The notes beneath the pieces were generated by a model, which was not told the origin of the DNA, searched no databases, and worked only from the letters and a program-made list of their open reading frames with translations. Shown piece after piece: positions 21,748-22,037 of a stretch of DNA of 24,792 nt (its first letter is position 1; each line of letters starts with the position of its first letter). This stretch comes from a virus (taxonomy: Duplodnaviria > Heunggongvirae > Uroviricota > Caudoviricetes). The DNA is taken from positions 1-24,792 of the IMG/VR virus record IMGVR_UViG_2648501235_000003; one strand, given 5' to 3'. The translations under genes were made by a program, and so were the position numbers.

Positions 21748-21804
21748 AGCCTCCTCCCGGGTCCATAACGCACTCAACCGGGTATGGTTCAGCCCATTTT
21801 TCCC

Positions 21805-21985
21805 GGCGTCTCATGCCGCAAATGTTAACTGCTGCCTGGTTAACATTTGCTGAAAAAGCCAGTTAACATTTTTTTCGCACAACAAACTGAATAATAAAGA
21901 TAAAAACCGAAAAAATGCCCGGGCAGCCAGTTAACATGTTAACTGGCCTGAAACAGGAATTTTTTCTCTGCATGAGACGGGGCGC
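21805..21985. promoter_or_regulatory. Candidate DNA-packaging recognition region between the HNH gene and terS, with five GTTAAC-core half-sites
   Basis: Motif (C)CAGTTAACAT or its complement at 21822-21831, 21838-21847, 21860-21870 and the 21926-21947 palindrome; flanked by a 10-bp inverted repeat cgtctcatgc (21808-21817) / gcatgagacg (21971-21980). Confidence 0.4.
21926..21947. repeat. Perfect 22-bp palindrome GCCAGTTAACATGTTAACTGGC
   Basis: Read directly from the sequence; two GTTAAC cores in inverted orientation. Confidence 0.85.
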
Positions 21986-22037
21986 GGTGTCCAAAGCGAT
22001 CGTTTTTTACGCCGGATGATACCCCCCCCGGGTTGGG

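Follow-up and report, generated by a model that had tools for sequence, protein, structure and literature searches.

In HK97-type phages, HNH proteins encoded beside terS, the gene for the small terminase subunit, assist cleavage of the cohesive-end site (cos), a role demonstrated biochemically in HK97 alone (PMC11331095, PMC9410871). HK97 DNA carries 10-nt 3' overhangs (PMC11331095, PMC9410871), and its small terminase (TerS) uses a single 15-bp element with an essential A-tract, 15–29 bp from the cut (PMC11331095). The cos of Pseudomonas phage D3 is 9 bp, 5'-GCGCCCCCA-3' (PMC12407980), and 3' extensions of ten bases are found on phiE125 and phi644-2 DNA, reading 5'-CGCCCGCTTC-3' for the right end (PMC2920897). 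Phage lambda cos is arranged as cosQ–cosN–cosB with R3, I1, R2 and R1, cosB being made up of repeated small-terminase sites (PMC6739421). Here we analysed a 24,792-nt stretch of a Caudoviricetes virus (IMG/VR record IMGVR_UViG_2648501235_000003, positions 1 to 24,792; hereafter the window), focusing on the gap between its HNH endonuclease gene and terS (21748–22037). Sequence comparisons indicate that this gap is probably a cos site of the D3/HK97 type, with a TerS-bound repeat array, in a prophage of the Shiga toxin (Stx) type. A first-pass annotation had placed a candidate packaging initiation site between the two genes, and this is supported: the gap holds a homologue of mapped cohesive ends, and its repeats behave as a cis-acting signal in satellites that have no terminase.

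The part of the gap nearest the HNH gene resembles a mapped cohesive end. The window sequence GGACACCGCGCCCCGT (21992→21977, toward terS) matches the mapped right end of D3 at 14 of 16 positions. The D3 record ends in ...GGACAC CGCGCCCCCA (fuller stretch GGACACCGCGCCCCCA), and its last 9 nt are the published cos. From this match, which is in register with the other ends considered below, the cohesive end is predicted at ~21977–21985/6, with a 9–10-nt 3' overhang and the terS-sense strand cut after T21977; the placement carries an uncertainty of ~2 nt on the 21986 side. Reading from the HNH gene toward terS, this part of the gap contains the following elements:

22022–22029: C8 run (G8 in the direction of terS), at 8 bases from the stop codon of HNH
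Between the G8 run and TGGACAC, minus strand: variable 28-nt spacer, identical at 11/28 positions in the Escherichia coli 042 satellite described below
21987–21993, minus strand: TGGACAC flank, just upstream of the predicted cut; identical in the satellites, GGACAC in D3
21977–21986, minus strand: predicted cosN, 5'-CGCGCCCCGT-3', placed by homology with D3 and other ends
21953–21976, minus strand: conserved block CTCATGCAGAGAAAAAATTCCTGTTTC, adjoining the left end on its inner side; A6 tract at 21960–21965

Like the window site, the D3 cos lies between an HNH gene and terS and has a near-identical core. Unlike the window, D3 has an unrelated TerS, neither the A-tract block nor any GTTAACAT site (see below) downstream of the cut, and a host of another genus. 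Among relatives of the window, four cosN variants were found, namely CGCGCCCCCT (43), CGCCCCCCGT (23), CGCCCCCCCT (4) and CGCGCCCCGT (2), and the commonest of them, CGCGCCCCCT, is nearer to the D3 core than the window's own sequence.

The same arrangement recurs at other phage ends. The HK97 record terminates in G9–32 nt–GAC followed by CGCCGCCAAA, and the last 10 nt of the phiE125 record, CGCCCGCTTC, are preceded by G6–32 nt–GAC. Bcep176 repeats the 10 nt CGCACGTTCC at both record ends, with GAC ahead and a G5 run 33 nt upstream, and the phiL7 record ends in ...G8–32 nt–GGAC and begins with CTGACTGGTCCGCATTCCGAGAAAAATTACCC. The distance from the G-run to the predicted cut is 35 nt in the window, compared with 32 nt in HK97, phiE125 and phiL7 and 33 nt in Bcep176; in D3, a G-rich block lies 30 nt upstream of the record end. 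The window, HK97, phiE125, Bcep176 and phiL7 share a common pattern: a G-run, 30–35 nt, and GAC before a 9–10-nt 3' overhang. Counting D3 with the other four reference phages, five cos phages with very different terminases have a G-run or G-rich block 30–33 nt upstream of the end, a regularity of which we met no statement in the literature. By this comparison, the G8 run is a conserved upstream part of this cos type rather than a nearby oddity, and the C8 tract that had been noticed near the HNH stop codon is indeed present. The run is possibly a cosQ-like or nuclease-positioning element, a candidate role only.

Two further observations concern the G-run. Unique relatives have runs of 5 to 11 G, and one contig (L104) has 13; this variation may be a true polymorphism or homopolymer sequencing error. 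In PPompW-type prophages (PPompW_132418, LC567822.1; L265 2763–4221), the IS110-family insertion sequence ISEc20 sits exactly at the cos G/C run, at window ~22025. The upstream HNH and lysis genes are gone, and tRNA genes and Q lie past the insertion sequence. Given the position of ISEc20, the insertion separates the PPompW cos from its upstream element, and the prophage is presumably defective.

The core is spread more widely than the proteins that would act on it. In Salmonella phage FSL SP-016 (hereafter SP-016), whose TerS is 49% identical to that of the window, the ~105 bp from the HNH stop codon to the palindrome described below are ~80% identical DNA, exceeding the conservation of the coding sequence. 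A scan with the core GGACACCGCnCCCCnTCTCA, one genome per species, found the arrangement also in Kosakonia, Entomohabitans, Enterobacter, Citrobacter, Atlantibacter and Buttiauxella; in all, seven enterobacterial genera have GGACACCGCnCCCCnTCTCA together with a G-run and terS. These enterobacterial matches have the order G-run, ~36 nt, core, A-tract block, GGAGG and terS. High-GC matches to the core pattern (Streptomyces and similar) have no G-run, repeats or terminase and were discarded as chance. Proteins do not track the core: the D3 TerL is 21% identical to that of the window, the D3 TerS is unrelated, and the HNH proteins are 32% identical over 63 aa.

Headful (pac) packaging, under which the region would be a pac site or play no role in defining ends, appears very improbable. 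Small terminase subunits of the Terminase_2 family that carry arrayed helix-turn-helix domains are best documented in SPP1 and SF6, both of them pac phages. This would favour headful packaging here, as would the failure to find virion-end data for this phage group in the searchable literature. The likeness of the window TerS to the SF6 small terminase is weak (PDB 4zc3, 2cmp and 3zqp, E = 0.18–0.67, residues 10–54), and the PDB comparison gave no other matches. Headful packaging is opposed by the 14/16 match to the mapped D3 cos, and by the nearest TerL relatives (53–60% identical), whose linear records open at the homologous site, with the terminal 10 nt repeated in Bcep176. Moreover, an HNH gene directly upstream of terS is a hallmark of HK97-type cos systems. 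Satellites carry the site without a terS of their own, which fits cos-type piracy as in EcCICFT073 and SaPIbov5.

On the terS side of the predicted cut lies a repeat array. The 8-mer GTTAACAT occurs five times in the window, at 21822–29 (−), 21839–46 (+), 21862–69 (+), 21930–37 (+) and 21936–43 (−). All copies fall within 122 bp (21822–21943), where 0.47 were expected in the whole window, and none of 100 shuffled sequences reached five. The longer form CAGTTAACAT is exact at four of the five sites and the remaining one reads GGTTAACAT, so the common core is the 8-mer and not a 10–11-mer. The five copies reported earlier, three dispersed and two in a palindrome, are therefore all present, with a shared core shorter than the 10–11 bp first described. 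The array comprises:

21926–21947: perfect 22-bp palindrome GCCAGTTAACATGTTAACTGGC, made of two overlapping opposite GTTAACAT sites (21930–37 and 21936–43)
21870–21925: AT-rich spacer separating the palindrome from the three distal repeats
21860–21869, plus strand: third GTTAACAT site, CAGTTAACAT on the plus strand and ATGTTAACTG read toward terS; 8/8 in satellites
21839–21848, plus strand: fourth GTTAACAT site, GTTAACATTT on the plus strand; 8/8 in satellites
21822–21831, minus strand: fifth GTTAACAT site, reading CAGTTAACAT on this strand; the conserved cos unit ends here on its distal side

The palindrome, already recognized in the first reading, is the sole perfect palindrome of at least 14 bp in the window, and one of at least 22 bp arose in only 2 of 300 shuffles. 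The fourth and fifth sites form a 12-bp inverted pair with a 9-nt gap between them. The palindrome centre lies ~40 bp from the predicted cut, and the three other sites lie 108–155 bp from it, past the AT-rich spacer. Among ~190 viral and metagenomic loci, five sites were present in every true homologue with enough downstream sequence, except that one, the metagenome contig OIXL01003092.1 (L231), has six; chance matches to the search pattern among the loci had no GTTAACAT sites. These repeats are most likely small-terminase binding sites (cosB), to judge from their arrangement and conservation.

This layout resembles that of lambda cos, in which the cut site likewise has several short repeats of mixed orientation on its terS side, set around an AT-rich spacer, with a further element on the opposite side of the cut. 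The two differ in that lambda has a 12-nt 5' overhang, compared with the predicted 3' overhang here, and Pfam does not assign the window proteins to the gpA and gpNu1 families. Unlike lambda, the window also has an HNH partner and no detectable site for integration host factor (IHF). A search for lambda cosN, GGGCGGCGACCT, with up to two mismatches found none in the gap; the lone match in the window falls within the capsid gene, fewer than expected by chance.

Genomic islands that carry the site but no terminase show which parts of it are kept. An island of E. coli 042 (L012 8700–18175; NZ_CP042934.2 ~939.5–949 kb) is ~9.7 kb long, and its cos adjoins clpS. It encodes an integrase (int), a RepA helicase, an Icd-like gene and a 629-aa ClpP-protease/capsid fusion, and holds a copy of 21820–21993 and of the G8 run. 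A second island type (L092) has the same site together with int, a D5-type primase, a single-stranded DNA-binding protein (SSB) and homologues of the lambda capsid proteins E and D. Eight further satellite-like loci were found in metagenomes (L177, L181, L183, L187, L232, L233, L253 and L258). All ten loci lack HNH, TerS, TerL and a capsid gene of the window type but carry all five repeats; tblastn with the window HNH, TerS, TerL and capsid protein gave no matches in the islands. When L012 and L092 were compared by BLAST with the whole window, they shared solely 21820/21–21993, at 77–78% identity.

Within this shared segment, conservation is concentrated on the repeats. In the 042 island, the repeat positions are identical to the window at 38/38, compared with 61/95 at the other positions in 21820–21952 (Fisher p = 1.3e-6). 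The 14-bp core of the palindrome is identical at 14/14, the G8 run at 8/8 and the core with the A-tract block (21953–21993) at 37/41, compared with 40/60 across the spacer region 21870–21929 and 16/42 beyond the last repeat. The similarity between phage and satellites stops at the fifth site (BLAST boundary 21820/21821), coinciding with the limit of the array drawn in the first-pass annotation. The invariance of the repeats while the spacers diverge indicates that the repeats are cis-acting.

From their gene content, the islands have the appearance of cos-type satellites for which Stx-type prophages serve as helpers. They resemble phage-inducible chromosomal islands (PICIs) in being small, in having an integrase, replication genes of their own and a helper-type cos, and in lacking terminase genes; they also encode capsid-protein homologues. 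EcCICFT073-type PICIs and SaPIbov5 are likewise cos-carrying satellites without terminase, with a helper-type cos near one end. EcCICFT073 differs in having a lambda-type cosN and a different cosB read through Rpp; the islands here copy the helper array unchanged, next to an HNH/D3-type cos. They presumably carry the whole cos unit so that helpers of this type package them, a reading suggested by the extent of the shared segment. One side observation is that a small gene of the DUF3950 (YlcI/YnfO) family lies divergently upstream of HNH in the window's relatives (as annotated in L002; window ~22445–22645, plus strand), and a member of this family is also encoded in the 042 satellite (L012 15820–16125).

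The satellites also bear on whether the repeats are instead expression signals for terS, either operators or RNA leader structure, and not packaging signals. In short-type relatives (see below), the palindrome spans both the ribosome-binding site and the start codon of terS, a position that would suit autoregulation. The predicted fold of the terS leader is modestly more stable than those of shuffled sequences (z = −2.7), owing to the DNA palindromes, and a single promoter-like match, on the other strand, coincides in part with the repeats. However, the satellites keep all five sites with neither terS nor a homologous gene after them, the similarity ending at the last repeat, which makes a role in expression control unlikely. 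Scans of the gap for promoters and terminators gave matches at chance level, including one weak terminator-like match in the AT-rich spacer, and in most relatives the 10-bp long-range pairing needed to close such an RNA structure is disrupted, with no compensatory substitutions. Overall, we consider expression control an improbable explanation of the array.

That long-range pairing is a 10-bp inverted repeat reported to bracket the array. It is perfect in the window (left arm 21807–21816, CGTCTCATGC; right arm 21970–21979, GCATGAGACG). It is 10/10 in just 16 of 68 unique relatives, and 39 stand at 8/10 with no compensating change; the left arm is not conserved in the satellite copies. We therefore rejected it as a functional stem, and it is probably incidental, judging from this pattern of conservation. 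A 24-codon open reading frame (ORF) from the ATG of the palindrome was also set aside, having no ribosome-binding site and being stopped after 4 codons in the satellites.

The A-tract block just inside the left end is conserved on its own account. It is recognizable in SP-016-type phages of seven enterobacterial genera, in Bcep176 (GCGCAGAAAATTTTCCC) and in phiL7 (CCGAGAAAAATTACCC), and the A-run begins at +22 from the overhang start in the window, Bcep176 and phiL7. The betaproteobacterium Nitrosospira sp. Nl5 (NZ_FMVQ01000016.1; L033 ~1885–1990) carries GGACACCGCGCCCCATCTCACGCAGACAAAATTTCCC, which comprises the core and the A-tract block; a G6 run lies just 9 nt upstream, and no recognizable terS start is present downstream. 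This locus could be another satellite or a remnant.

The conservation of this block raises the alternative that the gap is a cos site in which TerS reads the A-tract block, while the repeats bind another factor (for instance HNH, a nucleoid protein of the host, or an accessory protein encoded by satellite or phage) or act only to bend or space the DNA. The precedent is the HK97 TerS site described above. In addition, GCAGAGAAAAAATTCC is conserved far beyond the repeats, in SP-016-type phages, Bcep176, phiL7 and the Nitrosospira locus, and short-type relatives have at most a degenerate palindrome. On the other hand, the window TerS (PF03592, with an N-terminal helix-turn-helix) and HK97 gp1 (no Pfam match) belong to different families. 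The non-coding GTTAA half-site just upstream of the terS start persists from E. coli to Burkholderia and Pseudomonas phages with homologous TerS. D3 and phiE125 have unrelated TerS proteins and also unrelated sequence downstream of the cut. Taken together, recognition through the A-tract block seems unlikely, and it is the main rival to the favoured reading.

Comparison with relatives suggests how the array arose. All short-type relatives begin terS, at ATG or GTG, between a pair of GTTAAC-like hexamers, GT(T/A)AAC(A/G)TGTTAACAG, which encodes Met-Leu-Thr. The downstream hexamer is bound by terS codons 2–3; the upstream one is free of coding constraint but varies. Bcep176 and the Pseudomonas relative CF53a have GTTAATGGC(T/G)TTAAC at the place equivalent to the palindrome. 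In the Stx-phage lineage, the palindrome is perfect and non-coding and is followed by ~190 bp with three more sites before terS, which restarts at GTG CTG ACA, a diverged copy of ATG TTA ACA. The array seems to have expanded from the region of the terS start, the palindrome being a relic of the ancestral terS start. Bcep176 resembles the window in its A-tract block, the GTTAA...TTAAC pair around the terS start and its proteins (TerL 58% and TerS 36% identical), and its alignment with the window downstream of the cut reaches the terS start. In both phiE125 (GAC, then CGCCCGCTTC) and Bcep176 (GAC, then CGCACGTTCC), the G-run lies 32–33 nt upstream. Neither has the five-site array or the 190-bp extension, and a single inverted GTTAA pair overlaps the terS start instead; phiE125 further differs in its unrelated TerS and downstream sequence.

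Several considerations weigh against a cos site with a TerS-bound array. HK97, the sole structurally solved case, uses a single 15-bp A-tract site and no repeat array, so the A-tract block could be the main TerS site. Outside the clade, the upstream hexamer of short-type relatives is often GTAAAC or GTTGAC; as it varies and the downstream one is codon-bound, the palindrome is not strictly conserved there. The satellites represent one closely related cos lineage, and their footprint therefore counts as a single independent comparison. The record ends of Bcep176 and phiL7 were perhaps set by analogy and not by experiment. Two registers 2 nt apart are available for the cut: cleavage right after GGAC, the position seen in the other phages, gives ACCGCGCCCC (21988→21979), compared with CGCGCCCCGT from the register of D3 and the A-tract. 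The earlier view that the cleavage site cannot be read from sequence accordingly gives way to a prediction by homology at ~21977–21986, and it stands for this 2-nt choice, which the sequence does not settle. The IHF consensus has no match with fewer than two mismatches in the gap, leaving the lambda analogy incomplete; four matches with two mismatches in the 271-bp gap, compared with 1.1 expected, were dismissed, two of them being the palindrome itself. Ends of metagenomic contigs show no pile-up at the predicted end, and virion-end, binding or cleavage data for this phage group were not found in the searchable literature.

Contig ends were considered as a proxy for virion ends and rejected: three metagenomic contigs have their first base 27, 31 and 47 nt ahead of the search pattern, off the prediction. 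Anecdotally, position 1 of IMGVR_UViG_2681813226_000009 (L084) reads TCTCACGCAGAG..., within 1 nt of the predicted left end, which could be coincidence or an assembly break from packaged DNA in the sample.

Within the favoured reading of the gap as a cos site with a TerS-bound array, a packaging sequence can be proposed. TerS would bind the repeat array, and possibly the A-tract block too, through its N-terminal helix-turn-helix domains. This binding would position TerL and the HNH nuclease on the core, where they would make staggered nicks that leave a 9–10-nt 3' overhang, (C)GCGCCCCGT. Packaging would then run from the cut end toward terS, that is, toward lower window coordinates, until the next cos ended it, the G-run side becoming the right end of the chromosome.

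The genes around the gap fit this setting and are all on the minus strand, in the order HNH, gap, terS, terL, protease–capsid fusion and portal, with the site read from 22037 to 21748:

22038–22403, minus strand: HNH endonuclease gene, 121 aa, directly upstream of cos by transcription; Pfam PF01844, 33.8 bits (cut-off 21.4)
21184–21747, minus strand: terS (small terminase), 187 aa from GTG 21747 with GGAGG ahead; PF03592 Terminase_2
19526–21187, minus strand: terL (large terminase), 553 aa; PF03354 ATPase and PF20441 nuclease
17525–19462, minus strand: 645-aa prohead protease–major capsid fusion
15949–17313, minus strand: portal gene, following the protease–capsid fusion

The earlier assignment of HNH and terS as the flanking genes is thus confirmed by Pfam, as is terL beyond them. 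The HNH protein is 68% identical to that of SP-016 and has no significant similarity to HK97 gp74. The terS product scores 35.9 bits against PF03592 (gathering cut-off 26.1); the match is confined to the N-terminal part, residues 12–67 of the 197-aa ORF product aligning with profile positions 1–56. SP-016 and CF53a TerS also pass PF03592, and Bcep176 TerS falls slightly under the cut-off. The longest terS ORF begins at TTG 21777, and the first-pass annotation delimited the intergenic region from 21778. The true start is almost certainly GTG 21747, as indicated by the conserved N-terminus VLTTQKRKF, GGAGG at ~21752–21756 and the 564-nt coding sequence annotated in relatives; in the alignment with SP-016 TerS, VLTTQKRKFALALMSG aligns with MLTAQKRKYALALMSG. 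The gap is accordingly 21748–22037.

The window TerL is 55–60% identical to TerL of Bcep176 and of Pseudomonas and Burkholderia siphophages, 53% identical to phiL7 TerL and just 21–22% identical to TerL of D3 and phiE125. PF03354 and PF20441 are both above the gathering score in the window TerL and in HK97 gp2. The window shares with HK97 this TerL type, the HNH–cos–terS–terL order, an A/T tract inside the left end, and protease, Phage_capsid-family capsid protein and portal genes downstream. It differs from HK97 in its TerS, the HK97 protein being of another family with no Pfam match and threading DNA through its ring at one 15-bp site (PMC11331095), compared with five repeats over 122 bp here. 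The order of its head genes, terL, protease–capsid fusion and portal (15949–19462), also departs from the usual terL–portal–protease–capsid order of HK97.

The region is 92–97% identical in 94 deposited phage records, nearly all of them Stx1a-, Stx2a- or Stx2c-converting, including BP-4795, 2851, 1717, YYZ-2008 and phi330, the last classified in the genus Pankowvirus. It was found in 1287 of 5426 complete E. coli genomes, in up to 8 copies per genome, with a top match of 98.3% identity. On these similarities, the source element is a lambdoid prophage of the Stx1a/Stx2c-phage type (genus Pankowvirus). No definition of cos was found in the searchable literature, either in papers on Pankowvirus and phi330 or with the motif strings. 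The site is very probably of a known kind, that is, HNH-assisted, with a 3' overhang, of the D3/HK97 type, and its cosB array is very probably clade-specific; we found no description of such an array in the searchable literature.

A broader idea, which we put forward only tentatively, is that the cut-site module (G-run, ~32 bp, GAC and a CGCnCCCC-type overhang) is widely shared and almost independent of the proteins, with all specificity residing in a swappable cosB, which in this clade was built by multiplying the start-codon operator of TerS into five sites. If this were true, some conserved structural feature of the HNH–TerL nicking complex would recognize the core, or the core would be exchanged as a cassette, and satellites would copy cosB wholesale, unlike Rpp-type PICIs, which re-target TerS.

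Such phages are carriers of stx1a, stx2a and stx2c, the genes for Shiga toxin, and account for many prophages of pathogenic E. coli. A delimited cos would tell which DNA their particles can package and would provide a sequence tag for mobilizable satellites and other cos-bearing elements. It would also supply a defined ~215-bp fragment for transduction assays or engineered cosmids. Finally, a core common to HK97-, D3- and phiE125-type phages would be separable from the clade-specific array, making the division of labour among HNH, TerL and TerS testable.

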